A model generated the notes under the pieces. It had not been told where the DNA came from. It saw only the letters and a list, made by a program, of their open reading frames with translations, and did not search any database. A stretch of DNA of 64,000 bases from an uncultured archaeon (GTDB lineage: Archaea > Thermoplasmatota > Penumbrarchaeia > JASLWR01). Numbering within the stretch: the stretch's first letter is position 1; each line of letters opens with the position of its first letter. The stretch is taken from the NCBI GenBank assembly GCA_964430885.1, contig CAYSHM010000002.1, positions 109,009 through 173,008 on the forward strand, read 5' to 3'. The translations under genes were made by a program, and so were the position numbers. Positions 1-64,000 of this stretch are shown piece by piece.

Positions 1-622
1 TTGAAACAGTCTGTACCACCACCGCATGAAATATGGAGGCCGCGATGTTTTCCTTGCTAATTTTCCTTGATAGTAGGTTCTGAACATCCGTTTTGGCAAA
101 TACTCCGCATCGGGATGCAATTGTATAGACCTCTGTGGCTTTGCCCGCCAATCCATCCAGCTCAGATATGTCAACATCAAGCAATGTAGCCATTTGGTCG
201 ATAAAGGCGCCAGTGCCCCCGGCACAGTTCCCGTTCATTCTCATATCCGGACGGCCCCTTTCATCAAAGAATATTATCTTGGAATCTTCCCCGCCAATAT
301 CTATCAGGGTCTTAACACCTGGATGAAAATGTTTGATATAATCCGCCGCAGCTACCACCTCTTGAACAAAGGGGATGTCCATTCTTTCAGCCACACCCAT
401 TCCTGCAGAACCTGTCACAGCGAGCGAGATATCAATATTGCCCATTTTTTTCATTGCCTTCTTGAGCATTCCCTTCAGAGCCTTGGGTATGTCGCCTAGA
501 TGTCGGGAATAATCATTATAGATCATCTTCATGTCCCTGGACATAATGACGAATTTAGCAGTGGTGGAACCGATGTCCGCTCCGGCAATATATCTTATTT
601 TTCCTTTTCTATCTCTTTTCAT
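1..622 (-). CDS. 2-hydroxyacyl-CoA dehydratase activator (BadF/BadG/BcrA/BcrD ASKHA ATPase), partial; runs off the left edge
   Basis: Not in the ORF track. Manual translation from ATG 622 gives MKRDRKGKIRYIAGADIGSTTAK...VTGSAG...QEV...DIGGEDSK...MNGNCAGGTGAFIDQMA...IASRCGVFAKTD, the activase motifs including both Fe-S cysteines. Confidence 0.9.
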   Translation of the reverse strand, partial: MKRDRKGKIRYIAGADIGSTTAKFVIMSRDMKMIYNDYSRHLGDIPKALKGMLKKAMKKMGNIDISLAVTGSAGMGVAERMDIPFVQEVVAAADYIKHFHPGVKTLIDIGGEDSKIIFFDERGRPDMRMNGNCAGGTGAFIDQMATLLDVDISELDGLAGKATEVYTIASRCGVFAKTDVQNLLSRKISKENIAASIFHAVVVQTVS

Positions 623-29513: not shown

Positions 29514-31217
29514 TCAATCCTTTTCCTCAAGATTTCCGAAAGGAAAGTAAAGGAATCCGTTTTCTATGGCCGTAACCTGCTCTTTTATGGTCTGCAATGC
29601 AATAGGGAGGACATCCTCTAAAGTGAGCTTCTCCGGAGAGTTATCAATAATTTCCATCAGTTTTTTTGATACATAGAGATCAAGAAGATCTTCGATCTCT
29701 ATCTTCATTTCAGCATCCTTTACATCAGTATAAAGGGACATAATTTCATCAGTGCTCAACCTGGTAATATTCGTGATGTCGTTCTCAGCAGATAGGTCTA
29801 TCTCATCTTGCAAAGGTTTCCCCTTTTCAGATTCCATATCGCTTACCTTACCTGCTTTTTCAAGAATGGTATTTACTTCCTCCCCCGTCTCACTTTCATC
29901 CTTATCTCCTTCCTCATTGTCTTCGTCTTTAACTTCGGTTTCTTCAGCGGGATATTCCTTCTGGGGTTCAGTTTCGTACGCTTCATCGACTTTATCCTTT
30001 TCTTCATCATCAATAACTGTAAGTTCAGTATCATTGGTGATATGGTAATTTAATACCTCCATGATGCTGTTGATGCATTCTTCATCTTTATCGGCCATTT
30101 CACAGATGGTCTTATTTTCCCACTTTTCAAGGAGGTAAGTCAGCAGATCATGTCTGGCTTGTCTGAGAGGTTTCCCTGACAGCAGGTCCTTTTTCTTTTT
30201 CATTTGAAAATTGATCCTCTTCATCACTCTAGAGGCTTCGATATGATCATTTTTGAATCTCTCCAGTATTCCCCCTATATACTCCTTATCATTGGTGTAT
30301 AAAATTAGATCTTCAAGATCAATTTCGATTTCATTCAGAACCTTTTTATCAATGTCCATTTTGAGAAGATTGATTTTTTTGAACCGCTCAATGGTTGTTC
30401 TAGCAATATCGAGAAGAATATTAAATATCTCAATATCTATCTTCTGGACAATCACATCGAGGCCCCCCATGGAATTCTTTTCTTTAAGTGTTTTGAAGTG
30501 TTTTTGGATGTCTTTTAGTTCCTGGAGTAGTTCGTCATTCTCCTTCATCTCGGACAAAGGCATTTGCTGGATCTCTTCCACCCGATCCATTACCTTGAAA
30601 ACAACCTCCTCCTGTTCTTCCGAAAATCCCCATTCAGAACCTTTTTCAAATCCCGAGATGTGCTCATTAATTCTCTCTACTATCAACTTAGTTTCAGTAC
30701 TAACGCCCCATATTGCAAGTATGGGCTGGAGGCGGTCAAGTGATCTCTGAAAATACCAGCGGGCGATGATTTCGTTATCCTTATTGGTTTCGGTTTCTCC
30801 CAGTATATAGAAATCTTTAGCCTGTTTCATCATCAGCTCCAGATGTGATGATGAGTAGGAGCACATCACCTCTATCCGCTCTGCTTTCTCTTTCAGAGAT
30901 ACTACTTCAGGTTCTCCCGGAAGTACCTCCAGTATATCCCTGAACGCGGATATGGCCTCTCTTGCGAAATGGGAAATCTGCTCAACATCCTCGTCTTCTT
31001 TGATGAATGCCGAGGCGATGTTCAGCTGATTCTTACCGTATCTGAGCTTTTCCTGAAAGTTGAATGTTTTCTCCTCTGTCCGTTCAGGGATGATGCCATC
31101 CGATTCTAGCTCATGAACCTGATCATTATAGCTGATCCCGGAGGCCTTAACTCCCTCCTCTCCGCTCAGCTTCTCGGCTGAATCGGTATTTCCATCTATG
31201 CTTTCTTTATCTTCCAT
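29514..31217 (-). CDS. Acidic helical hypothetical protein
   Basis: 567-aa ORF with a GAGG-like SD; no recognised motif. Confidence 0.65.
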   Translation of the reverse strand: MEDKESIDGNTDSAEKLSGEEGVKASGISYNDQVHELESDGIIPERTEEKTFNFQEKLRYGKNQLNIASAFIKEDEDVEQISHFAREAISAFRDILEVLPGEPEVVSLKEKAERIEVMCSYSSSHLELMMKQAKDFYILGETETNKDNEIIARWYFQRSLDRLQPILAIWGVSTETKLIVERINEHISGFEKGSEWGFSEEQEEVVFKVMDRVEEIQQMPLSEMKENDELLQELKDIQKHFKTLKEKNSMGGLDVIVQKIDIEIFNILLDIARTTIERFKKINLLKMDIDKKVLNEIEIDLEDLILYTNDKEYIGGILERFKNDHIEASRVMKRINFQMKKKKDLLSGKPLRQARHDLLTYLLEKWENKTICEMADKDEECINSIMEVLNYHITNDTELTVIDDEEKDKVDEAYETEPQKEYPAEETEVKDEDNEEGDKDESETGEEVNTILEKAGKVSDMESEKGKPLQDEIDLSAENDITNITRLSTDEIMSLYTDVKDAEMKIEIEDLLDLYVSKKLMEIIDNSPEKLTLEDVLPIALQTIKEQVTAIENGFLYFPFGNLEEKD

Positions 31218-31465
31218 TTACTGTCCTCTGTCTTTATCAATGATTTACTGTTCATATGGTAAAATAACTGTGGGACAAAACTATTGAAAACCCTAACTAA
31301 TTAATGACAAATAATGCTTTTTATTTAATTCTTTTGCAACTGCGGTAATGAGTGAAAATACAAGCAATGATTTCAGAGGTTAAAAAAATTCTTTTCAATC
31401 TACTTTATCGGCTTTAAGCGGTGATAATGATGAATAAATCAATAACTGATGGAGATATTTAGGGG

Positions 31466-51596: not shown

Positions 51597-54500
51597 TTAT
51601 TTCTTTCCTTTTTTTATTATTAAACCAATCAGGACCAAAAGGATAAAAATTCCTGCCCCTGCATAGATGAATACTGGATTATTCACAATAAATGATTCTC
51701 CTTCAGCATTATTTTTGGGATTTGACATTATCCTCACCGTAATATTATCCATCGCGCTATTTCCTTTCTTATCAAAGGCGGTAATGGTGAGCTCGTACTG
51801 CCCGTTTTCAATTGAATCTGAAATAGGATATTTCAATGTGAATTTTCCGTCCATTTCCCATTTATCACCCATCTTTCCATCATCCCTGAGCTCTTTTTCT
51901 TTTGGCCCACCCATAGGACTGAGGTCTATGGTTATCTTTTCTAAATCCTCCCAACCATCTGGATCGGAGATCTTCACTATGCATTCCCAAATGTTATTGT
52001 TATCTATATTCACAAGTTTGATTGTGCTCCTTATGTCAATCTTGGGTGCTAAATTGGTCTTTATTATCTCTATTGATGAGTTCTCCAAGGTCTTCGCCCC
52101 TGTCCTGTCGATTGCGATAATGGTAATTAGCTGATTACCTAAAGTTAAACCTCCAGGCAGGTTAAAGATCAGAGCATAATTCCATCTACCTGTTCTATCG
52201 CAGAGCATGCTTCCTAGTCCCAGGGAGGATAGGTCAACAGCTACCGATGCGATATCATCTGGACCATCAGGGTCGTTCAGTATGATGTCTATAGCAACCG
52301 TCCCACCTTTGTCCTCTAAAATCCGGGGTTCTATAGATATACTTGTAATCTGAGGCGGGTTGATAATTATATCAATATCGAATTCTATTTCAGCAATTTC
52401 CGATTCCTGATCATCGACATCAACGGCCATTGCTCTGAAAATATGCTTCCCCTTACCCAATACGGATATATCAATTTCTACCTCCCAAAGCTCATCATCC
52501 GATATGGGTATCCATTCCTGATCATCTACCTGGGCTCTTACCTCTTTAATCCCGTTATCGTCCAGGGCTCCTCCGAAGAAAAATGTATTTTCAGTCAGAG
52601 TAGTGTTGGGATGGGGATAATCGATGTACACCAATGGTATCAGACTTTTTCCGCTTTCATATATGTCTGCATAAAGCACACCCTCAGTCAAACCGCCATC
52701 ATTATCTGCCACGCCAACATTTATAATATACTTGTCAGGAACATTGAAGGTATGTATCAAGCTCCCTTCCTGGGTTAAATAATCCCAATCCAGGTCATTG
52801 TCAGTATCCCACCAATATTCTGCTACGGATCCATCACTATCCACGGCCTTTACAGTTAACTCCACCGGTTCCTCAGCCTCACCGGAAGCATTGTTCAATT
52901 CAAGAATTTCCGGCAGTTGATTTTCATGAGGCAGTGCCTTTGAGATTATTCCCGAGGGATAGCGTATATTTCCGTATACCAGGTTAAGACCTTCTCCATT
53001 CACTTTGATTTCAAGGGTGAGCTGAATATCACTTCGGAATGTCAGATCTGTAATGGGGATCTCGCTAGATAACTGTATCATCATCGGCGGACTGCTGGGT
53101 TCAACATAATCCTCGGGGCTCTCAATCTGGAAAAGGTTAGTTCCGTCTATACTGACGGTAGTCCTGAACTGAACGTCAAATCCGCGGTCCTCCAGTGAAT
53201 TTTCGATCCAGAATTCCACATCCATTTTCTCCACAAGCTCCACGGTTTCCAGGGAATAACCTATTTCCCACAGTCCGATTGTCCTGTATTCTACTATTCC
53301 AATTGGACTGCTGGGAATGGGATAAGGTGTATATCCGTCCGGACAAGGCATGGTGGAGTAGTCGGAAATGTCTGGTTTATCTAGGGTAAGGTTTCCCTCG
53401 TCCAGTATGTAGAATCCCAAACGTCCTCCTTCTAGTTCCCGAACTGAGATGGTCATGCTGGCGTTGTTCGTACTATTCCTTCCTCCATTGTCCTGTACAA
53501 TCAGACTGGCGGTAAAATTACCGGGAATAGAATAGGAATGACCAACGTTATCAACATTGATCCAACCGCTCTCATTTCCATCACCGAAAAAGAAACGCCA
53601 TTTAGTAACGCTCCCGTCGGTGTCAAAGGATTCATCTCCGAAAAAGGTTACTTCTTCGTGGATGTCGGCCAAGGATTCAGGGGATGAGGCCAATCTAGCA
53701 ACGGGTGCAGCATTCACACCCCCTGTTACTCTTATGGGTTTTGTAGCTGAATTGTTGTTCTCGGAAAGCTCATCTATCTCATCATCAGGGTCTACTGCCA
53801 CATAGATATTATGAATTGTACCTGCTGTAGCTACCCATTCCACATACGTACTTTCCCTTGCCCCTGCAGGGACATCAACCTCACCACTCCCAATAAGGAT
53901 TCCGCTGGTGGGATTTCCGTCATAGAAATCCACTCTTGCATCAAAGGCATCACTTAGTCCCCGATTTGATATGTTTGCATAGATCACAACTGTTTCACCG
54001 GCATTTACAGGGGATTGGGAGAATGTTATGTCCTCCGGAGTAATCACTAGATCTGGCTTCTGTTCCGATTTTCCTACGGATATGGTTTCTTCCTGCGTTG
54101 GAAGCGGTATGCGGTTCAATTCCCCAGATAATTGAAAATCAAAGGTCTGTTCATCCCCGACTTGCGGAGAGGTTGTAAATAATTTGAGAGCGGGGTCCAC
54201 TTCAATATCTTCCCCTTCAGGGCTATTTAGGGTTGCTTCGGCACTGACCCTCCATAAGCCAGGGAACCTTTCAATGTCCAGTGAGTTCAGTTCCACTTGT
54301 CCTCCAGCCGATGATGTTAATGTAATATTCTCGGGTCTGGAGAAGAAATCAGGAAATTCAAGAACAAGGGACAGTTCATCCCGGGATGTGAAATAGGCTC
54401 CCCTGTAAAGATCTAAAGACGGCTGAACCTTAATCCTCGTTCCGCTGTCCACGAACTGGGGCATATTCAGCTTAAAAGAACTAAGATCAACAGCCCTTCT

Positions 54501-55925
54501 TACAGCACCATAGGAATCCATCATTCCATATCCATAGTCCTCGTTGTATTTCTCATCTAAATTTGAATCGTAGGGATTACCCTTCATCTCGGAAGTGAGA
54601 TGTAAAATCTCCTTTATATGGGAAGGTTCCAAAGGAGGATATGCCTGCTCCATGAGTGCTACGTTACCAGCTACATGGGGTGTTGCCATGGAAGTACCTG
54701 AGAATGCGACATAGGCATTTCTCGTATTATAAGCGCATGAACGAATGTCAGATCCGGGGGCCGTGATGTCGGGTTTAAGCTCATCTTTATCATCACCATC
54801 CCCATCGCTGGGCCGGGGTCCGCTCTGGGAATAACCCGCAATACTGTCATCGCTCCTGTCGGCGGTGTTCTTCTCATGAATAGATCCCACTGTAATGACC
54901 TTGTCGGCAGATCCTGGAGATGAAACTATATTGGAATTTTGACTGAGGTCGTCATTTCCGATTGCCACAATAACAGTCACCCCCGCATCCACAACTTCAT
55001 TGGCCAATCTAGATACTGGATCCTGGCCGTTTGTTGAATGCTCGGTTCCCATGGAGATTGAAAGCACTGATATGTTGTATCTGTCGGCATTTGCCCTGAC
55101 CCATTCCAGGCCCTCCATGAAGTTGGTCGGTGTCGCACTGCCCAGGGTAGCAGCGTCTCCCACCCTGCAGTCTACCAGTGATGCTTCCGGTGCGATCCCG
55201 ATATTTTCTCCACCGCTTCCGGTCCCCATGATAATACCTGCGCAGTGTGTACCGTGCCCCACATCATCGTCGGGGTTTCTAGGTGTAACTCCCACAGCAG
55301 TTGTAGTATCTACCCCCGCTATGAACTTCAATCTGAGTCCCGTATGTACAACATCATCCACTCCCGAATCGATAATCGCAACATTCACCCCTTCTCCTTT
55401 CAGTCCCAGATCTTTCCATACCGTGGAATCATATATCTCGCTTTCCTTAACTCTAACCGCTCTAGCAGAATTGTCCAGCATGGGATGGAACGTTGGTGCG
55501 ATTTCTATACACTTCACATCCTGTAGCTTCAATACACAATCTATGATATTTTTATCAGCGTTCTCGATTATCAGGGTATTGATATACTGGGATACAAAAG
55601 AAGGGGATAAATCATATCTTTCGAGCTCCAGAAGATCAGAGTCATCGATGGTTTCATGGTAGTTAACAAAAATGTCGAATCTTGCATACGGGTTTTGATT
55701 GAGGATTTCATCGATTTGGTCCTCTATCCCATTTCCGTCCATATCAATGTTCCATTTTACCATGATGTTTTGAGATCCATCCAAATTATTATTTTTGGGA
55801 ATATTACTCATGAAGCTTATTTCGGCTATGGGCTTGGCCATTGAAAAAATTCCAATGACGTTGAGCAACAATAACGTACTGCAGAAGACGATAGTGATCT
55901 TTCTCAAATTCATATTAACTACCAA
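51597..55925 (-). CDS. Membrane-anchored S8 subtilisin-like protease with CARDB, PKD and Ig-like domains
   Basis: Triad IIDSG, GHGTHCAG, GTSMATPH; DLVI...DEIDELSENNN (CARDB); FFGDG (PKD); C-terminal TM and KKGKK. Confidence 0.92.
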   Translation of the reverse strand: MVVNMNLRKITIVFCSTLLLLNVIGIFSMAKPIAEISFMSNIPKNNNLDGSQNIMVKWNIDMDGNGIEDQIDEILNQNPYARFDIFVNYHETIDDSDLLELERYDLSPSFVSQYINTLIIENADKNIIDCVLKLQDVKCIEIAPTFHPMLDNSARAVRVKESEIYDSTVWKDLGLKGEGVNVAIIDSGVDDVVHTGLRLKFIAGVDTTTAVGVTPRNPDDDVGHGTHCAGIIMGTGSGGENIGIAPEASLVDCRVGDAATLGSATPTNFMEGLEWVRANADRYNISVLSISMGTEHSTNGQDPVSRLANEVVDAGVTVIVAIGNDDLSQNSNIVSSPGSADKVITVGSIHEKNTADRSDDSIAGYSQSGPRPSDGDGDDKDELKPDITAPGSDIRSCAYNTRNAYVAFSGTSMATPHVAGNVALMEQAYPPLEPSHIKEILHLTSEMKGNPYDSNLDEKYNEDYGYGMMDSYGAVRRAVDLSSFKLNMPQFVDSGTRIKVQPSLDLYRGAYFTSRDELSLVLEFPDFFSRPENITLTSSAGGQVELNSLDIERFPGLWRVSAEATLNSPEGEDIEVDPALKLFTTSPQVGDEQTFDFQLSGELNRIPLPTQEETISVGKSEQKPDLVITPEDITFSQSPVNAGETVVIYANISNRGLSDAFDARVDFYDGNPTSGILIGSGEVDVPAGARESTYVEWVATAGTIHNIYVAVDPDDEIDELSENNNSATKPIRVTGGVNAAPVARLASSPESLADIHEEVTFFGDESFDTDGSVTKWRFFFGDGNESGWINVDNVGHSYSIPGNFTASLIVQDNGGRNSTNNASMTISVRELEGGRLGFYILDEGNLTLDKPDISDYSTMPCPDGYTPYPIPSSPIGIVEYRTIGLWEIGYSLETVELVEKMDVEFWIENSLEDRGFDVQFRTTVSIDGTNLFQIESPEDYVEPSSPPMMIQLSSEIPITDLTFRSDIQLTLEIKVNGEGLNLVYGNIRYPSGIISKALPHENQLPEILELNNASGEAEEPVELTVKAVDSDGSVAEYWWDTDNDLDWDYLTQEGSLIHTFNVPDKYIINVGVADNDGGLTEGVLYADIYESGKSLIPLVYIDYPHPNTTLTENTFFFGGALDDNGIKEVRAQVDDQEWIPISDDELWEVEIDISVLGKGKHIFRAMAVDVDDQESEIAEIEFDIDIIINPPQITSISIEPRILEDKGGTVAIDIILNDPDGPDDIASVAVDLSSLGLGSMLCDRTGRWNYALIFNLPGGLTLGNQLITIIAIDRTGAKTLENSSIEIIKTNLAPKIDIRSTIKLVNIDNNNIWECIVKISDPDGWEDLEKITIDLSPMGGPKEKELRDDGKMGDKWEMDGKFTLKYPISDSIENGQYELTITAFDKKGNSAMDNITVRIMSNPKNNAEGESFIVNNPVFIYAGAGIFILLVLIGLIIKKGKK

Positions 55926-56197: not shown

Positions 56198-57976
56198 TCA
56201 TTTGCTGAAAAACTTATTAATTCTCTCTTTTGTCCATGCATTGATCACCTGATCTGGCGTGGCCCTTCCTTTTCTGGCGGTACCTATCCCGAACCTTATT
56301 CCTTCCAGGTGATGAGGGCTGTGCCCATCACTGTTTATTGATAAAAGATTGCCCTTGTTCATTGCTTGGATCACATGGTCCATATTCAGATCCAGTCTGA
56401 CAGGGATGGAATTGATCTCCAAGGCAATATTATTGTTCATGGCGCTGTCCATGACGGTGTTCATGTCCATTGCACAGGGTTCCCGCTGTCCGATTTTTCG
56501 GCAGGTGGGATGTCCAAGAATATTGATATGGCCAGTAGACATGGCATCAGTCAATCTCTTTGTCATTTCATTGCTACTCATTTTAAAACCGGAGTGTACT
56601 GACCCCACAACATAATCCAATTCTTCAAGGACATGGTCAGGATAATCTAAAGATCCGTCCTTAAGTATGTCCACCTCGCTTCCTGCAAATATTTTAATGC
56701 CGTATTCATCGTGGTCCAATTCCCTGAGTCTTTCAATATTTTCCATTACCTTTATCTCATCTGGAGCATTAATCATCTTGAGGTTGGGGGAGTGGTCCGC
56801 AATACCGATATATTCATAATTCCTTCCCTTTGCATTGTCCACAACCTCCCTCCAAGACATGTGGCCATCACTCTCAGTGGAGTGTATATGAAGATCTCCT
56901 TTGATGTCCTGGATAGATATCAGCTCCGGTAGCTGTCCGGATTGTGCCAATTCGATCTCACCCCGGTCTTCCCTGGTTTCTGGGTAGGGGAATGAAAGTC
57001 CCAAGGCCTCATAGACCCCAATTTCATCATTCCCTGCTTTTTTTTCCTTCGATTTCCTGTCGTATACGCCGTACTCATTTATCTTCAATCCAATGGATAT
57101 AGCGATCTTCCTGACGGCGATATTGTGCTGCTGTGAACCTGTGAAATACTGGAGCGCCGCACCCCAGCACCCGCTATCAATAACCCGAAGGTCTACTTGG
57201 GTTCCGTCGTGGAACCTTACAGAAGATTTGGTTTTCCCCCGAGCTATAACATCTTTTACCAAGGTATAGGATGTGAATACCTCCATTATGCTGTCTACAA
57301 TCTCATTTTCCCGGTCCCCGTCCTCAAAATCTTGGTCATAATCGGTGCTCTTTCCGCCGTTTGATGGCGCCACTAGAATATCTATATCTCCGATTGTTTC
57401 GCACATTCTCCTAAGTGATCCTGCGATAGAGATATTCCTGATTTGGTCCGAGCAGTTGTTCTTCAGGTGATCTATATACTGCATTGCCTTCCCGTAGGCC
57501 TCCCCTAGGAGCATTCTGCCACCTGCCTGATAATAGGTCTCCAGCCCTTTTATGATATTGTTTTGGGAAACCTCTCCAAACCCGTCCAGTTCCTTTATTC
57601 GGTCGTTGAGGGCCGTTTCCTTAAGATCATCCAAGGTCCAGATCCCCAATTTCTTGTGAAGCTGCATGACCTTTTTTGGGCCTAGAGATGGTATGTCCAG
57701 CATTCTGATCAGGTCTGGGTGTATCTGGTCCTCCAGATCATCCAGATACCTGATGTGTCCGGTTTCGATATATTCCTCGATCTTCTTTGCGATAGCCTTG
57801 CCAATACCCTTCAGATTTTCCAATTCACCTTTATTCATTATCTCTCTAATATCAGAGGTCAATCCCTCAAGTGTAGAAGCTGCATTCCTGTAGGCTCTTA
57901 TCTTGAAAATGATCTCTCCTTTCAGTTCCAAGTAATCAGCGATTCGATATAATAAAACAGCAATGTCCTTGTTCAT
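56198..57976 (-). CDS. polX: DNA polymerase X with PHP exonuclease domain
   Basis: RAYRNAA, HhH GIGK/SLGPKK, GSLRR, GDIDIL, VDLR, YFTGS; PHP DLHIHS, DHS, HPT, SDGH. Confidence 0.95.
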   Translation of the reverse strand: MNKDIAVLLYRIADYLELKGEIIFKIRAYRNAASTLEGLTSDIREIMNKGELENLKGIGKAIAKKIEEYIETGHIRYLDDLEDQIHPDLIRMLDIPSLGPKKVMQLHKKLGIWTLDDLKETALNDRIKELDGFGEVSQNNIIKGLETYYQAGGRMLLGEAYGKAMQYIDHLKNNCSDQIRNISIAGSLRRMCETIGDIDILVAPSNGGKSTDYDQDFEDGDRENEIVDSIMEVFTSYTLVKDVIARGKTKSSVRFHDGTQVDLRVIDSGCWGAALQYFTGSQQHNIAVRKIAISIGLKINEYGVYDRKSKEKKAGNDEIGVYEALGLSFPYPETREDRGEIELAQSGQLPELISIQDIKGDLHIHSTESDGHMSWREVVDNAKGRNYEYIGIADHSPNLKMINAPDEIKVMENIERLRELDHDEYGIKIFAGSEVDILKDGSLDYPDHVLEELDYVVGSVHSGFKMSSNEMTKRLTDAMSTGHINILGHPTCRKIGQREPCAMDMNTVMDSAMNNNIALEINSIPVRLDLNMDHVIQAMNKGNLLSINSDGHSPHHLEGIRFGIGTARKGRATPDQVINAWTKERINKFFSK

Positions 57977-58018: not shown

Positions 58019-58480
58019 TCATTCAACACCCATTTTTTTCCATTTTGACTTGGCTCTAACATACTCCGGTGCAGCAAAACCGTATCTGAAACGGTCCATC
58101 ATGCTGAATTTCCAGGGTTTCCTAGACATTTTGGAGGCTAAAGCCCTGATAAATTTCTTCGAACAACTAATATTATCAACATTCAGGTCCTCGATTTCCA
58201 GCATGTGTACAATGCCTGATGCGGTGGGAGCTTTATTGAAAACCTTGATCCGTATATCCGCAGGCTCATGAACCTGGAAAACATAAACATAAGCAAATTT
58301 GGGCATAGGTACAACAAAAACAACCTTGGAAAACTCCTTCTGGCTCTCTTCTCTGGTGAATTTATAGCCCAGCTCTTTCAAGGTAGTTCTCACGAGGTAG
58401 GACAGCTCGTCCACCTCCGGCCAAACGGCAGCGGAAAATTTTTCGGGATATCTCACTCCCTTATAGGTAAAATGTCCCAT
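58019..58480 (-). CDS. Hypothetical protein, basic
   Basis: 153-aa ORF co-oriented between neighbours; possible weak SD (GTGAG). Confidence 0.65.
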   Translation of the reverse strand: MGHFTYKGVRYPEKFSAAVWPEVDELSYLVRTTLKELGYKFTREESQKEFSKVVFVVPMPKFAYVYVFQVHEPADIRIKVFNKAPTASGIVHMLEIEDLNVDNISCSKKFIRALASKMSRKPWKFSMMDRFRYGFAAPEYVRAKSKWKKMGVE

Positions 58481-58551: not shown

Positions 58552-60756
58552 TCAGGAGAAACCGCAGTTCTTGCAGCTGTCCAGATCGAACATGCATTCT
58601 ATGTGGTATACCTTGCTGCAATCCGGACATTGGTTCCCTTCTTCTCCGATCTTCATCATCCTGCTGCAGTGAAAACAGATATTTGCTTTCTCAAGGGATG
58701 GAATGAACTGCCATTTCTTTTCTAGCCCGCTGACCGTCCCGTTCGGAATATCGTGATCACTCTCATCTATTTCCCATTCTCCATCATCGTCCGCAATGCT
58801 TGGCTCATCTGCTGGCGGGGAGTCTATCGGGATATTGAGGTTTGGTACCGGTGCGGAATATGAATCAGAAGCATCCTTAACTGAAACCCATCCGCTGTCC
58901 TCCCCTGTCAGTTTATCCTTTTTCTCAGTTCGTTCCAATTTCTCAACTTCAACCGATGAGAGGCATGAAGATGTGTCGGACCCGCAGTTTGGACATACGG
59001 GTATTTCACATTCCAAATGCAGAAGAGAATCGCATATCTTGCACATATATGCGTTCTTGCTGGCCATGAAATCCCTGTTGCAGACCTCGCATTTAACAGT
59101 ATTGTTAACGGTGATTCTTCTGCTGGGTTCCTTTTTAGGTTCGAGTCTTTTACCTGAAAGGGCCGTGTCAGGGGTTTCTCCGGAAGTATCGGCTTTGCCC
59201 CCTTTTGTCTTGTCATAAGGGCTGGAAGCTCTTTTTTTCATAATGACCATCAGCGCTACCATTATAATGATTATAACAGCAAAGACGATGGATAGAATTA
59301 TTATGGTAAGCACCCAATTTTTATCCTCTTCTTTTTTGTCCTGTTTACCCGAACCAGCACTTTCGACCTCTATCTTGGTGAACTTTTCATCAACAGTGCC
59401 GTCATTGTCCATGACAAGCAGTGTTATATTATGGGTCCCTCCACTGAGCTTAATCATGTCATTGAGGGATGTGGAGATTAATCCGTCAAGATCCGATACC
59501 CATCTGTAGCTTATTATATTGCCGTCATTATCACTGGACCCTAATGCCGATAGGTTGATCTCTCTGTCCGATGAATATGACCCTTCACCCGGACCCAATG
59601 GTCTAGGGTTCTTCAAAACGGCATTTGGGGGTTGATTGACATTATCAACCACGATTGTCCATCCTCTTACATAGGCCCTGGAACCTGACTTGACCAAGAC
59701 CTTCAAAGATCGTGAGCCCTGGTCCCTGAACTTGGGGGAATATGTGTAGTTCCACCCGTCCTCATTGGGGATTTCGTCTCCATCCATTTCCCAAGAATAA
59801 CTCACAACCACATCATCAATGTTCTCAACCTCCAGGGAGAAACTGAGTCCCTCACCCTCTGGAATATATACAACGCTGTCTGCGGGATGACTGGCAATTA
59901 TTAATATATCATCTGTAACGCTTCTAATATTGACTGTAACTTGTGCTGAAACCGAAGTACCTAGGTGATCCACGGCAGATATTTCCAGAGTTTCCATCCC
60001 ATAGTAGTTCTCCTCGGAGAAAAAGGTGACGAGTCCTGTGCTGTTGTCCATGAGGTAATGGACCATATCATTGTTCCTGATAACATAACCCAGCTCATCA
60101 CCGTCAGGATCAGAGAAATATTTGTGGAGGTCCAATCCCATATATGATGCACTCCCTCCCTCTTCCAAAACCTGGGTCGGGATCTTTCCCCCAACCACCT
60201 TATCAGTGACTTCAGGAATCTTATTGTAAAACACAGAGAGTCCTCTGAGGGTTAGGTTCCCGGCTGTGGTCGATGTGATATTGAGTGTTATCGGAGGGGT
60301 TTTTCCATTGCCGGTTTCCGGGATAAGTTCATTGTTCAGGGTGCTTATTATATCATTGCCTTCGATAGTGGTGTTTCCTACCAGTTGACCGGGATACTGC
60401 CATTCCACCTTTGAACTGCTGCCTATATTAAAGGTTATGTCAGATGGATAGGACCCATTGAGGGGGTGGCTGCTGATCTTCATTGAGAAATCATGTACCT
60501 TCTCTCCTTCATCCAGGGTCATGGTTATTTGGGTGTTGGTTCCGCCTCCCACAGGAAATTGAATAATCGCTTCAGGCGAATCATCGGAGAAAGTATCCAC
60601 ATCTGGACTTGCATATACTCCAGGTCCGAAGGTCCAGAAGCAAATTGTTAAAACGAATATCAGCAAGATACTCTTAATCTTGTTTGAGTTGAATTTACGG
60701 TTTGATTTCTCATTTTCTGAAAGCATTGAACACCCTCTCCTTGGATTGATAATCAC
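58552..60756 (-). CDS. Single-pass surface protein (Ig/cadherin/PKD-like ectodomain) with two cytoplasmic C4HC3 RING-like zinc fingers
   Basis: Signal peptide, YFSDPDGD, NQPP.A, SSDNDG..ISY.W, TM, then two C-x2-C-x12-C-x2-C-x4-H-x2-C-x4/6-C-x2-C motifs. Confidence 0.8.
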   Translation of the reverse strand: MIINPRRGCSMLSENEKSNRKFNSNKIKSILLIFVLTICFWTFGPGVYASPDVDTFSDDSPEAIIQFPVGGGTNTQITMTLDEGEKVHDFSMKISSHPLNGSYPSDITFNIGSSSKVEWQYPGQLVGNTTIEGNDIISTLNNELIPETGNGKTPPITLNITSTTAGNLTLRGLSVFYNKIPEVTDKVVGGKIPTQVLEEGGSASYMGLDLHKYFSDPDGDELGYVIRNNDMVHYLMDNSTGLVTFFSEENYYGMETLEISAVDHLGTSVSAQVTVNIRSVTDDILIIASHPADSVVYIPEGEGLSFSLEVENIDDVVVSYSWEMDGDEIPNEDGWNYTYSPKFRDQGSRSLKVLVKSGSRAYVRGWTIVVDNVNQPPNAVLKNPRPLGPGEGSYSSDREINLSALGSSDNDGNIISYRWVSDLDGLISTSLNDMIKLSGGTHNITLLVMDNDGTVDEKFTKIEVESAGSGKQDKKEEDKNWVLTIIILSIVFAVIIIIMVALMVIMKKRASSPYDKTKGGKADTSGETPDTALSGKRLEPKKEPSRRITVNNTVKCEVCNRDFMASKNAYMCKICDSLLHLECEIPVCPNCGSDTSSCLSSVEVEKLERTEKKDKLTGEDSGWVSVKDASDSYSAPVPNLNIPIDSPPADEPSIADDDGEWEIDESDHDIPNGTVSGLEKKWQFIPSLEKANICFHCSRMMKIGEEGNQCPDCSKVYHIECMFDLDSCKNCGFS

Positions 60757-60819: not shown

Positions 60820-63800
60820 TTACTCAAGGATCACAACATCCTTGGGATTCTCTTGCTTCTCTATGAAATCCAGATCCATCCCCATTTCTGATGCAATTTG
60901 CTTCACAGCACTGTCGCTGTTAACAATTCGTGCAATATTTTTGTGAGCCTCTTCAGTTCCGATTTTTCTAAGGGACTGTAATGATAGGGTCCGATCCTCA
61001 GGTTCAATAGATCTCTCAAGCATATTTGCCAACGCAGGGACCGTTCGAGGATCTTCGGTTCTTCCGAGATATTCAAGTGCCAATCTTCTGATCTTGATAG
61101 GGAGATCATACAATCTTTCGATGATCATTTGAACCGCATATCTGTCATTGAATAGAAGGAGCCTTTCGAAGGCTTCCCTGGCCTTTTTGGTTGAATGTTT
61201 TACCAGATCATTCACGATTTCAGTGGTGATGAATTGATTCACGCAGGTCCTCAAGGGCGATTTTCCAACTCTTATGAAAAGATGATCTTTCATTTTTCCT
61301 GCATTTGCCTGGCCTTTTTTCAAATTATAGAAATGGTATTCAACAAACAGAGATCTGCATATTGAAACGAATAGTTTCCAAGCGGTATTTCTTCTTAATA
61401 TCTTTTCATTATTTGATTCCAAGTGGTCAATTCCATGGAGTACTAATTCGGTTAATTCCATATCACTCATGTCGGCCAAAATAGTCAAGAATTCCATTAG
61501 GCTCCATTTTTCATCTATATTTTTAAATGGTCTATGAATCCATTTATCCATATCAAACCTGATTTCTTTTTTATTAAAATCCCTATCCAGACGATCCTGC
61601 TTGCCAGCGCTTTCAATTTTGACTTCTTTAGATTTTATTTCTGACCTTTCAGTAGTTATCCATTTTGGGTAATATTTATTATGGTTTGGACTCTCCTTCT
61701 TCACCTTCGGGATGTCCATAAGGTAGCGCGTTAAACCTGAGATCAATCTTATTGACAGGTAAAGATTGCCTTTTGAAGCATTTAGGATTTCTGTAAGGGA
61801 TTGTTCTTCATAACCCCTTCTGAGGCTCTCAAGTATATCGGAGATAGGGGAGAAGCTAATGATGGATGTTTCCCTGGTCCTCAGCTTCATGAATCCGGTC
61901 TTTCTCACGGTTTTTTCAAATTCAAAAAATCCGCTGGATTCTAGAAACTTTTTACATTGATCTCTTTTTACTTTGGATTTTTTTGATATGTAGTGAAGTG
62001 TAAGATCTTCTGCTCTTACGATGTCGGAAAGCCCAGTCTTTAGAACACTTTGGGCGAACAGAGTGTTGGTTGTGAGAAGCAGGACCTCGATCGGTTTTCT
62101 TTCGGAATCGTTTTCATTCACCTTCTGATTTGATCCTTCCTTCGGAATTTTATGATTATCCATTGGTTTCTTGCAAGGGGGACCCTTGAAGATCTCCTCA
62201 ATACCGGAGTAATAATTAATTTCATCAATTATTGGCGCCGCTACAATTTTCAATAGCTCGTGAGGTGCGCATTTATCAATAGGCAGAATTGTCGAAACCG
62301 TGACGGAGGAATTGCCCGGCGCAGCTTTAATACCCTGTATCCTGTAGCGGTATGGCCCGATGTTTTTATTATTGTTCAATAATTTGAAAGAGCCATTTGG
62401 GAAATATAGTTCAATATTTATCGGAACGGTTGAAGATGATGTATTCTTAACGGATATCTGGATATCTGTTCTACTTCCGCTTCCACCCATGAGCATCTTA
62501 TTTTTCAGTGCGAATACCAGTTCTTTTCCGAATGTGTAGTAATCCTTTCTATACTTGACATTCTCATAATAATTAAGAATGAAATTCTGTGTTCTGGACA
62601 CATTTCGTACCCAATTAAAATGCCATGTCTTATGGAATTTTTTGATATAACGGAAGAGATTCTGTCGGTGAAAGTCATTCAATATCTCGGTCGCCTTCTT
62701 TTGATCATTGGCTCGTTGATCTTTGACCATTTGGGATGCGATCTCATTTTCGGTCCATTTAATCAGGTGCTGTGTTATTAACGATAAATGCATCTCCAGG
62801 AGCGTACTGTAATATAATAATGAAAGTGCAGATGTTATGTCCATATTTCCTTCATTGAATTGTATCAGTATTTCGTCTATTTTGCTCTGGATAGCCTGAT
62901 AAGCGAGGCCTAAGAACATTAAGGTGTTGGCCCCTTTTTCCGGGTCCCAAATGGCACCGTCAGTATCTGAATGATCAAATGAAAGTATATTCGAATTGAG
63001 GCCTGTGTAAAGGAGAGGCGGTGTTTTTTCAAGGATTTCAGTCATTTCACCATCAAATTGATCCCCCTTGTTCCTATCTGCTTTCCTGAGAGCTTTTTTG
63101 AATCTTTTCAATATTCTACTGTTCTTGCTGTATGGTGAACCAGAAAAATCTTGAAGAAAGACAAGGTAATCCCTGCTTAAGAGGGTATTTTTCAGAGGTT
63201 TAGATACAAGTTCTTTCAGCATGTATAAAGGGGATCTTGACATTATCTGATACTTTTTTTTCAGCTTGTGGCCCTTTGCATTTTTCATCCGTTTTCTAAA
63301 TAGCTTAATTAAACCCTCCAGATGATAGGATGGGTCATATTCGTTCCAATACTGGTCTTTAAGATGAAATGCTTTGGATAGATCTTTGGATATGGTGTTT
63401 TTCTGAATTATATTTCTCAACATTCCACCAAGGGACCGCTGAATAATTTCCAGCTTGTTTCTTACATCATATAATACATTTCTAGTCAAACCCGTGCTGC
63501 TGCACCAATTTAGGAGTATTTGACCTTCAAACTCCTTCCGAATTCTTTTTTCCGAATCCTTAGTTATCAATGAATTCCTATAAAGAAAAAAATATCCGCC
63601 ATTTTCGAGATGAACGGTTTTATGATCCGCTATTGCATCTATTCTAGTGATTTTTTCATCTGGAAACAGGTATTTGTCAAAAGCTGCATTTCCATCTGCC
63701 TTATCATTATCTACTTGTTTTATTGAACCGTAATCTAATACATTCAGTTGTACAGGTATTTCGTGGTCCCGCTGTATTTGGGTGAAATAAGTCTGTCTGT

Positions 63801-64000
63801 AAGCTTTAAATGAGTGCTTTCTTCCTTTGACAAGAGGTGTTATCCGTATCTCAATGGGTCCTGAATCCGTGTTTTCAGGAATTAATAAGGAGCTTTGAAG
63901 TAAACCCCTGATTTTTCCCACCTCAGTTTCAAATCCTTTCCGATCCAGATCCAGGACTACTTTCCTCTGGTTTATTACTGTACTGTCTTTAATCAGTTCT
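60820..64000 (-). CDS. Large basic protein with C-terminal HEAT/PBS-lyase-like repeats; N-terminus beyond the window
   Basis: Frame stays open from 63921 to the edge (ELIKDSTVINQRKVVLDLDRKGFETE-VGKI); C-terminus IRRLALEYLGRTEDPRTVPAL...SLRKIG. Confidence 0.7.
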   Translation of the reverse strand, partial: ELIKDSTVINQRKVVLDLDRKGFETEVGKIRGLLQSSLLIPENTDSGPIEIRITPLVKGRKHSFKAYRQTYFTQIQRDHEIPVQLNVLDYGSIKQVDNDKADGNAAFDKYLFPDEKITRIDAIADHKTVHLENGGYFFLYRNSLITKDSEKRIRKEFEGQILLNWCSSTGLTRNVLYDVRNKLEIIQRSLGGMLRNIIQKNTISKDLSKAFHLKDQYWNEYDPSYHLEGLIKLFRKRMKNAKGHKLKKKYQIMSRSPLYMLKELVSKPLKNTLLSRDYLVFLQDFSGSPYSKNSRILKRFKKALRKADRNKGDQFDGEMTEILEKTPPLLYTGLNSNILSFDHSDTDGAIWDPEKGANTLMFLGLAYQAIQSKIDEILIQFNEGNMDITSALSLLYYSTLLEMHLSLITQHLIKWTENEIASQMVKDQRANDQKKATEILNDFHRQNLFRYIKKFHKTWHFNWVRNVSRTQNFILNYYENVKYRKDYYTFGKELVFALKNKMLMGGSGSRTDIQISVKNTSSSTVPINIELYFPNGSFKLLNNNKNIGPYRYRIQGIKAAPGNSSVTVSTILPIDKCAPHELLKIVAAPIIDEINYYSGIEEIFKGPPCKKPMDNHKIPKEGSNQKVNENDSERKPIEVLLLTTNTLFAQSVLKTGLSDIVRAEDLTLHYISKKSKVKRDQCKKFLESSGFFEFEKTVRKTGFMKLRTRETSIISFSPISDILESLRRGYEEQSLTEILNASKGNLYLSIRLISGLTRYLMDIPKVKKESPNHNKYYPKWITTERSEIKSKEVKIESAGKQDRLDRDFNKKEIRFDMDKWIHRPFKNIDEKWSLMEFLTILADMSDMELTELVLHGIDHLESNNEKILRRNTAWKLFVSICRSLFVEYHFYNLKKGQANAGKMKDHLFIRVGKSPLRTCVNQFITTEIVNDLVKHSTKKAREAFERLLLFNDRYAVQMIIERLYDLPIKIRRLALEYLGRTEDPRTVPALANMLERSIEPEDRTLSLQSLRKIGTEEAHKNIARIVNSDSAVKQIASEMGMDLDFIEKQENPKDVVILE

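Follow-up and report, generated by a model that had tools for sequence, protein, structure and literature searches.

A receptor-like surface protein with two predicted RING-superfamily fingers on its tail, and the ubiquitin-like kit of a Thermoplasmatota archaeon

Membrane ubiquitin-type tagging, as used in receptor down-regulation, sorting and quality control, is treated as a eukaryotic invention with Asgard roots. A 64,000-nucleotide stretch of DNA from an uncultured marine archaeon of the phylum Thermoplasmatota (assembly GCA_964430885.1, contig CAYSHM010000002.1, positions 109,009 to 173,008; the whole stretch is called the window below) raises the question of whether such tagging could also operate there, as it contains a gene for a receptor-like surface protein with two Cys- and His-rich fingers on its tail. 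Our best reading, which we favour tentatively and would not call probable, is that this tail may be a membrane-bound adaptor resembling a ubiquitin ligase (E3). The role is proposed because the finger family co-occurs with, and in several lineages adjoins, a gene cassette for an activating enzyme (E1), a ubiquitin-like protein (Ubl), a conjugating enzyme (E2) and a JAMM protease. Support for the E3-like role comes from this context of the finger family in other genomes and not from the studied locus.

Architecture and conservation of the protein

The open reading frame (ORF) encodes 734 aa counted from a GTG. The true start is probably the ATG at 60726 (residue 11 of this count), because a Shine-Dalgarno-like GGAGAGGGTG lies immediately 5' of it and the database copy of the protein has 724 aa. 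The gene has the following parts, with residues numbered from the GTG and model confidence given as the predicted local distance difference test (pLDDT):

58552..60756, minus strand: whole gene, 734 aa from the GTG, 724 aa from the probable start at ATG 60726
60610..60726, minus strand: signal-peptide-like N-terminus, residues 11-49, with a basic stretch, a hydrophobic core (hydropathy peak at residues 29-47) and VYA before SP, as read from hydropathy and sequence
60166..60609, minus strand: N-terminal ectodomain region, residues 50-197, without a Pfam match; aligns with P0004, P0005 and P0006 (three of four orthologues)
59929..60165, minus strand: Big_9 / cadherin-like immunoglobulin (Ig) domain, residues 198-276 (PF17963, 31.1 bits, cut-off 23.6)
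59386..59571, minus strand: PKD domain, residues 396-457 (PF00801, 28.5 bits, cut-off 23.5)
59239..59316, minus strand: single transmembrane helix, residues 481-506, followed by KKR (Kyte-Doolittle peak 3.45 over 19 residues)
58555..59238, minus strand: presumed cytoplasmic tail, 228 aa, residues 507-734
58984..59091, minus strand: finger 1, C4HC3, residues 556-591, from ligand spacing and orthologues; fold matches in model range 9..69 are RING and U-box domains
58879..58896, minus strand: G-W-x-[STA]-V linear motif in an acidic disordered linker (linker pLDDT <50); W and V invariant in 5/5 orthologues
58564..58719, minus strand: finger 2 domain, residues 680-731, a C4HC3 finger preceded by a strand that contains an invariant Trp (12 residues ahead of the first Cys)

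A reading made from the sequence alone (the sequence-only reading) had described a signal peptide, an Ig-like ectodomain, one membrane helix and two C4HC3 fingers. Our analysis recovered this layout, and both fingers lie within 1 nt of the positions given then. Cadherin_5 reached 23.0 bits in the region of the Big_9 match, under its own cut-off, and the Pfam scan of the ectodomain gave matches to Big_9 and PKD only, with no PA domain. We infer a type I single-pass topology with the tail in the cytoplasm, because the protein has a signal peptide and a single helix and because the cytoplasm suits Cys-zinc fingers.

The ligand spacing is C-x2-C-x12-C-x2-C-x4-H-x2-C-x4-C-x2-C in finger 1 and C-x2-C-x12-C-x2-C-x4-H-x2-C-x6-C-x2-C in finger 2, where the C4HC3 part covers residues 694-731 (nt 58564-58677). 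A strict eight-ligand motif was found three times among the 33,134 stop-to-stop ORFs of at least 40 aa in the 3.13-Mb genome. The two-finger motif goes beyond chance, because two of these three occurrences are in this one protein and the ligands are invariant in its relatives: all 16 zinc ligands are kept in 5/5 orthologues and in 9/9 sequences of alignment A2.

An exhaustive HMMER search with the tail against 1.84 billion representative proteins revealed 11 proteins at E <=1e-3. Four of these (P0003-P0006, 506-749 aa) have the whole layout of the studied protein. P0007, P0010, P0011 and P0012 have two such fingers each, placed behind a short membrane anchor in the last three; P0007 (164 aa) has no hydrophobic segment and may be partial. 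A word-indexed homologue search with the tail returned the protein itself only (1 of 650 candidates), and none of the 10 pattern matches from a search of genome contigs with the tail alignment was confirmed.

Conservation extends beyond the ligands. The Trp that stands 12 residues before finger 2 (KKWQFI...) is invariant in 5/5 orthologues, like the G-W-x-[STA]-V motif. Finger 1 has Val inside the first C-x2-C and Pro inside the last C-x2-C in all five orthologues, and its second ligand pair in the orthologues is C-x-C, not C-x2-C. A hydrophobic residue in the first pair, a Pro in the last pair and a short helix after ligand 6 are what we take to be the E2-contact positions of RING domains; finger 2 of the studied protein has His and Lys at the first two of these positions. 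Acidic residues prevail in the linker that joins the two fingers (22 D+E versus 7 K+R in 84 residues), which contains both Trp motifs pointed out earlier (SGWVSV and GEWEID). GEWEID is not conserved, and the conserved elements are G-W-x-[STA]-V and the Trp before finger 2.

Fold and family of the fingers

The fingers were scored against curated families as part of the whole protein, within the tail and alone. The whole protein gave C1_2 at 25.3 bits (cut-off 26), C1_1 at 24.6 (cut-off 26.5) and the prokaryotic RING finger family 1 (Prok-RING_1, PF14446) at 17.0 (cut-off 29.1), and the tail alone gave C1_1 at 27.1 and C1_2 at 27.5 bits. For finger 1 alone the scores were C1_2 31.3, C1_1 22.4, Prok-RING_1 21.3 and PHD 14.8 bits; for finger 2 alone they were Prok-RING_1 22.0, C1_1 20.4 and PHD 16.4 bits. 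Neither finger reached the PHD cut-off (PF00628, 24 bits). No known ubiquitin-binding zinc-finger family appeared in the Pfam lists of the fingers.

Prok-RING_1 members are often membrane-associated and are linked by gene neighbourhood to Ubl, E2 and JAB components; the family was reportedly first set out by Burroughs, Iyer and Aravind in 2011. The fit to this family that had been proposed held for the C4HC3 ligand order, which is present in both fingers, and not for the scores, which stay at 17-22 bits for the whole protein and either finger, although among Pfam families Prok-RING_1 ranks first or second for finger 2. A six-frame scan of the genome gave 49 Prok-RING_1 matches, all below the cut-off; one paralogue (contig C1:201233-202393) reaches it, at 29.2 versus 29.1 bits.

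C1 domains (PF00130, PF03107; found in PKC and MgcRacGAP) share the core C-x2-C-x12-C-x2-C-x4-H-x2-C and the fold (Z 5.9-6.3), and the leading beta-strand of finger 2 starts 12 residues before its first Cys. In the C1 pattern a His ligand precedes the first Cys by about 12 residues, and the last ligand is a lone Cys. In contrast, no His stands upstream of either finger, a Trp occupies position -12 of finger 2, and both fingers end in a C-x2-C pair, so the C1 ligand pattern is absent. By its sequence the protein belongs to the RING/PHD/C1 binuclear treble-clef superfamily, with a ligand order nearest Prok-RING_1, and, scored whole, it reaches the cut-off of none of these finger families.

An AlphaFold2 model of the last 192 residues, built from a 9-row alignment, gave pLDDT values of 86-90 for finger 1 and 94-95 for finger 2; the finger 2 model has a short helix after ligand 6. 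Foldseek with the tail model against the PDB returned no match at E <=1e-3, as is usual for 45-residue domains. The top row was the RNF12 RING (E 0.053, TMt 0.58, root-mean-square deviation (rmsd) 2.3 over 59 columns), and the other top RING rows were RNF13 (a PA-TM-RING ligase), RNF165, c-Cbl, RMR1 and ZNRF1. The top C1 rows were MgcRacGAP (E 0.11), Munc13 and GEF-H1. VIA-align over 48,161 chains matched finger 2 (model range ~128-192) to the ZNRF1 RING (Z 7.5, rmsd 4.5 over 63), TFIIH p44 (Z 6.8), RNF165 and Ark2C (6.5), PKC C1 domains (6.1-6.3) and RNF12, RNF38 and RNF13 (5.7-5.9). Finger 1 (model range 9..69) matched the RINGs of TRAF6, KAP1, BIRC7 and Ring1b and a U-box (Z 4.4-4.9). The best matches to RING and C1 domains had an rmsd of 2.0-2.4 over 49-59 positions, and the RNF13 and RMR1 structures matched by fold or profile were 5zc4/5zbu and 7bvw. 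Simple zinc ribbons had been named earlier as the outcome that would speak against a RING-type assignment; no zinc ribbon was seen in the top rows of the fold searches, all of which were binuclear cross-brace folds. The model thus predicts that both fingers are binuclear cross-brace domains of the RING superfamily.

We also examined the fingers as a family within the genome. A hidden Markov model (HMM) of 18 fingers from the studied protein and its relatives identified 13 proteins at E <1e-3, plus one tetratricopeptide repeat (TPR) protein at E 7.7e-3; the zinc site of leucyl-tRNA synthetase (E 5.7e-4) was dropped as a false positive. This answers the paralogue count called for earlier: 8 of the 13 are receptor-like, with a signal peptide, an ectodomain, one helix and one or two tail fingers in 734-3089 aa. 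Their ectodomains contain BNR, NosD/beta-helix, LamG, PKD or Big_9 domains. The other five comprise two proteins with an N-terminal anchor only, one CDP-alcohol phosphatidyltransferase and two soluble proteins. The phosphatidyltransferase (contig C5:33067-33996; 91.8 bits) has its finger at the C-terminus, a lipid-synthesis enzyme fused to a RING-like domain. In a 1230-aa PKD surface protein (contig C32:3451-7143) the tail finger is followed by a J-domain-like stretch (DnaJ 26.4 bits, cut-off 27.8).

A profile of the source genome's 18 fingers (A4; 47 positions, mostly paralogues of the studied protein) matched solved RING-H2 ligases over positions 4-46. The best matches were RNF165 (E 2.7e-6) and Arkadia (4.7e-6), with further matches to RNF24, Pirh2, ZNRF1, EL5, gp78, RNF126, RMR1, HRD1 and RNF12, and to ZNRF3 at E 0.01. 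They were interleaved with the PKC-delta C1 domain (E 5.9e-6) and the Pygopus PHD finger (E 2.5e-4, first 28 profile positions only). In the RING-H2 alignments the C-x-C pair of the family is offset by two residues from the C-x-H pair, and the other six ligands are aligned.

The layout recalls eukaryotic receptor RING ligases. PA-TM-RING proteins (RNF13, plant RMR1) and ZNRF3/RNF43 likewise have a signal peptide, an ectodomain, one membrane helix and a cytoplasmic RING. Unlike them, the studied protein has Big_9 and PKD domains instead of PA, two fingers instead of one, and C4HC3 instead of RING-H2 ligands. We regard the likeness as an analogue of layout.

The ubiquitin-like kit and its association with the finger family

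The sequence-only reading had placed the protein in an archaeon not known for a ubiquitin cascade, which does not agree with the records. A 'Ca. Thermoplasmatota E2' clade lies deep in the archaeal E2/UEV tree of a 2023 preprint (10.1101/2023.07.25.550441), and public records already name 'ubiquitin-conjugating enzyme E2 [Thermoplasmata archaeon]'. Grau-Bove et al. 2014 reported up to six C3H2C3 RINGs and one RINGv in one marine group II genome (PMC4327156). In the literature searched, the Thermoplasmatota system amounts to one sentence on the E2 clade and this RING count. The search, which had most subscription journals outside its scope, did not find the tandem C4HC3 form, the expansion on giant surface proteins or the Ubl-E2-JAB operon link for Thermoplasmatota, and an earlier description is possible.

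A small RING finger protein (srfp) E3 is encoded in the archaeal ubiquitin operons of Caldiarchaeum subterraneum and Asgard archaea, according to PMC5654768 and 10.1101/2023.07.25.550441. The finger family resembles it in being an archaeal RING-superfamily finger and, at family level, a neighbour of Ubl, E2 and JAMM genes, with a UBC-type E2 that has HPN and Cys. The srfp is small and soluble, and the aigarchaeal RINGs are of C3H2C3 zf-RING_2 types according to PMC4327156. In contrast, the studied protein is a 724-aa surface protein of Thermoplasmatota with tandem, short-looped C4HC3 fingers on its tail, and its gene lies in no cascade operon.

The window contains no E1, E2 or Ubl gene, in agreement with the earlier reading; all such matches are on other contigs. 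The search for partners that this reading had suggested was positive, as the genome encodes two UQ_con E2s, a GG-ended Ubl, JAMM proteases and an E1 orthologue. The E2s (169 and 170 aa) scored 51.9-52.0 bits (cut-off 27), and none of 14 control genomes had a match above the cut-off. When one E2 is aligned to UBE2A (E 2.5e-11), HPN and the catalytic Cys fall at matching positions, and these residues are invariant in 30 homologues. Two ThiF proteins were found, one of which (the E1, contig C17:12145-12915) is the orthologue of the cassette E1 of another genome, G131 (43% identity, E 1.4e-67). No match to U-box or HECT was detected in the genome, which is 91.6% complete, and its 14 zf-RING_2 matches, all under the cut-off, were all in finger-family paralogues.

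On contig C1 (22983-24571), an 80-aa protein ending ...PEGG plus one residue adjoins a 417-aa JAMM protein. Its PF00240 (ubiquitin) score of 17.3-18.2 bits is below the cut-off of 25.4, and family membership plays no part in our naming it a Ubl; the name reflects its size, its ending in GG plus one residue, the JAMM and E2 genes beside it in other genomes and a weak match to YukD. The conservation of this protein is a ubiquitin-like constraint, as judged from its sequence, because it is 79-90% identical among families f1, f2, f4 and f6, versus about 50-75% for the E2s of the same families; identity is 54% in f3 and 78% to the Ubl of G040, a genome of another family of the phylum. On contig C18 (30909-33293), the gene after a UBC-type E2 (30909-31421) encodes a 510-aa protein in which two complete JAMM motifs stand in tandem. 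This protein is probably a membrane-anchored double deconjugating enzyme, since it has two C-terminal hydrophobic segments. The E2-JAB pair is kept in G001-G003 and G011. Two genes from the second E2 (contig C14:45007-45516) lies a 469-aa TPR protein with an eight-Cys finger (contig C14:46731-48140; IBR 17.1 bits, below the cut-off); as a candidate E2 partner it was rejected, being not kept beside that E2 in G001-G003.

Co-occurrence was examined in the class (37 genomes; the GTDB order has 4 species genomes) and, for the phylum, in 401 evenly sampled genomes. With A4 at E <=1e-4, the four genomes of family f1 had 18, 27, 19 and 24 finger matches and G004 had 31; G005, G006, G008 and G009 had 4-10, and the other 28 class genomes had 0 or 1. 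UQ_con was above the cut-off in 12/37 class genomes. The Ubl was present in 9/37, exactly the genomes with at least 4 fingers. Across the phylum sample, 113 genomes had the finger and 94 had UQ_con: 86 had both, 27 the finger only, 8 the E2 only and 280 neither. Family f11 was fully concordant (29 both, 19 neither, 0 discordant), and in genus g20 the same 6 of 11 genomes had finger and E2. Such genus-level co-variation is hard to explain without a functional or physical link. Gene order in other lineages shows one.

The finger gene directly adjoins Ubl, E2 or JAB cassette genes in at least four other families. In G040 and G051 (f13), a helical finger-ending protein without a transmembrane segment (3155 and 3183 aa) is followed on the same strand by Ubl, E2 and JAB. 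In G069 and G081 (f30), a 3134-aa finger protein, E2 and JAB follow each other on the same strand with 4-bp gaps. G071 (f32) has a 409-aa membrane-anchored finger protein, then Ubl, then E2, and G004 (f2) has an E2 and then a 323-aa finger protein, beside an E2-JAB-propeller fusion. These orders were read from ORFs; G096 and G111 show the same finger-cassette adjacency from coordinates alone. The Ubl/E2/JAB neighbourhood is therefore present for the finger family in G040, G051, G069, G081, G071 and G004, and it is absent at the studied locus and in family f1. G040 also has a 971-aa protein with a signal peptide, Ig ectodomain, helix and finger about 0.8 kb upstream of its finger-Ubl-E2-JAB operon, on the same strand, and the ectodomain of this protein resembles that of the studied protein (E 4.6e-7). 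In G131 the cassette is E1-Ubl-E2-JAB, and the sole finger protein of the genome (164 aa, an anchor and two fingers) is 134 kb away.

The cassette-adjacent giants of 3134-3183 aa (G040:C3, G051:C3, G069:C157 and G081:C1) are helical-repeat proteins in which Ala, Glu, Leu and Arg abound; they lack a membrane helix and match no Pfam family. In the source genome the 3089-aa surface giant (contig C8) was considered as their homologue and set aside (no match at E 1e-5); only the 1088-aa soluble finger protein (C5:1366-4632) matches their C-terminal 200 aa. The fusion in G004 (G004:C47, L076:6518-8152) is one 544-aa protein of UQ_con, JAB and a PQQ-like beta-propeller, divergent beside the E2 and finger genes.

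The neighbours of the receptor gene described here lie, like it, on the minus strand. Directly downstream, a position it takes in this family only and as the sole conserved neighbour, lies a gene for a 153-aa protein (58019-58480) with no Pfam or NCBIfam match, which adjoins the receptor gene in 3/4 genomes of the order, namely those that hold both genes. It was ruled out as a specific receptor partner because it is a single-copy core gene of the class (31/37 genomes, 12/12 high-quality ones), also present in lineages where the receptor is absent. Its AlphaFold model is an alpha/beta fold (pLDDT 80.6, predicted TM-score (pTM) 0.79) with no clear match in the PDB (best Foldseek E 3.4e-3; weak rows to PGM domain 4 and KA1 domains). 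Upstream by 63 bp is a 1033-aa protein (60820-63921) with no family except C-terminal HEAT repeats (HEAT_2 26.9 bits, just below the cut-off); this placement is not kept in G001 or G002. A PolX-type DNA polymerase with a PHP domain (56198-57976) and, adjoining it, a 1442-aa subtilase (51597-55925) that combines CARDB, PKD and Big domains with a hydrophobic anchor at its C-terminus look ordinary. The stretch is present in four DNA runs of one marine study, two of which may be its source; no RNA run was listed for it.

Candidate roles of the tail

With its Ig-like modules (Big_9/cadherin-like, PKD) presumably facing outwards, the protein has the look of an adhesin or receptor. If the tail is an E3-like adaptor, the ectodomain might signal across the membrane. 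At least one finger, finger 1 being the better candidate, would dock a charged UBC-type E2. The 80-aa Ubl would then be attached to the tail itself or to nearby proteins, and the membrane-anchored tandem JAMM protease encoded beside one E2 would take it off again. The likely use would be to regulate how surface proteins are turned over or sorted, or what state they are in; eight large surface proteins of the genome bear this kind of finger. A complex prediction with the E2 (alignment A5), finger 2 (A2 residues 128-192) and two zinc ions scored 0.01 against a mark of 0.32; it contained finger 2 and not finger 1, and is evidence neither way.

A number of observations weigh against the E3-like role. 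In the fingers themselves, finger 2 has neither the hydrophobic residue nor the Pro at the presumed E2-contact positions, the loop between ligands 6 and 7 is just 4-6 residues long, and the two fingers are the most divergent of the genome's 18 (23-38% identity to the rest). They receive no zf-RING_2 row, though their paralogues do, their best Pfam matches are C1_2 and a sub-cut-off Prok-RING_1, and the structural Z-scores, at 5-7.5, are moderate and fail to tell RING and C1 apart. At the locus, the cascade genes (E1, E2, Ubl and JAB) are on contigs other than that of the studied gene, with no locus link in family f1, and nine E2 loci of 12-15 kb each (from six class genomes, three of them in family f1) hold no finger gene. 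In the phylum, kin are not independent, so the two-by-two table overstates the association of finger and E2. Of the 113 finger genomes, 27 have no UQ_con match, and 15 of these belong to the sister family f9, where the one finger protein shares the layout of ectodomain, helix and finger; E2-independent forms are also those of f36 and f42. Both the UBC E2 and the Ubl were found in 0/24 f9 genomes; therefore at least the f9-type finger, of seemingly ancestral architecture, seems to work without a UBC-type E2.

These points bear most directly on a second explanation, less probable than the E3-like role and still a serious contender, in which the fingers would be non-catalytic docking modules that tether the tails of surface proteins to a partner or scaffold in the cytoplasm, or to the membrane's inner face as C1 domains do, with no Ubl transfer. 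The C1 families as best curated matches of the fingers (C1_2 for finger 1 alone, C1_1 at 20-22 bits), the C1 domains that stand level with RINGs in the fold searches (PKC and MgcRacGAP) and the PKC-delta C1 match in the A4 profile search would all fit such a role, as would the finger-only genomes, the f9 proteins and the studied locus, which has no cascade linkage. The fingers on a CDP-alcohol phosphatidyltransferase and beside a J-domain-like stretch also suggest a general tail module. Against docking, neither finger has the N-terminal His ligand of C1 (finger 2 has Trp in its place, finger 1 has no counterpart) and the last pair is C-x2-C. The genus-level co-variation with E2 and the Ubl-E2-JAB adjacency in four families are not expected of a generic module either.

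A third explanation, which we regard as improbable, is that the tail, instead of acting as a ligase, reads the Ubl system or is one of its substrates: the fingers or Trp motifs would bind Ubl or its conjugates, or the tail would be tagged. It draws on the same context evidence as the E3-like role, since that evidence shows a link and not its direction. The Trp motifs (G-W-x-S-V and W-x-x-[IV]), invariant in 5/5 orthologues, and the disordered acidic linker are consistent with it; these motifs presumably resemble short hydrophobic-core docking motifs, and the tail has 22 Lys. However, it is RING-H2 domains of the E2-binding kind that the fold and profile searches match, and ubiquitin-binding zinc-finger families are missing from the Pfam lists.

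It is very unlikely that the Cys/His clusters form two separate zinc ribbons, or structural knuckles that bind no particular partner, as weak sub-cut-off Pfam rows (Zn_ribbon_6 17.5 bits, DZR 15.4 bits) stand against a conserved interleaved C4HC3 spacing, a model that matches cross-brace domains (rmsd 2.0-2.4 over 49-56 residues) and full-length A4 profile matches to RING-H2 ligases.

Taken together, Thermoplasmatota combine a complete and conserved E1-Ubl-E2-JAMM kit, a finger family that tracks this kit, and fingers placed repeatedly on the tails of surface proteins. A broader proposal goes beyond the E3-like role of this one tail and seems to us rather unlikely: that the phylum, which is distant from the Asgard-eukaryote line, runs a membrane-centred Ubl system in which a highly conserved GG-ended Ubl is charged by a compact E1 and a UBC E2, delivered by a large family of receptor-like ligases on the tails of giant adhesins (17-31 fingers per genome in the lineage studied) and removed by a membrane-anchored tandem JAMM protease. 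If it is true, the receptor-coupled tagging logic of RNF43/ZNRF3, MARCH and PA-TM-RING proteins would either predate eukaryotes and not be confined to Asgard archaea, or have arisen twice. If the fingers are ligases, they would offer a simple prokaryotic system, in short and expressible pieces, for asking what a receptor-coupled E3 does. If they are not, the family would still be a widespread and so far unnamed tail module of archaeal surface proteins.

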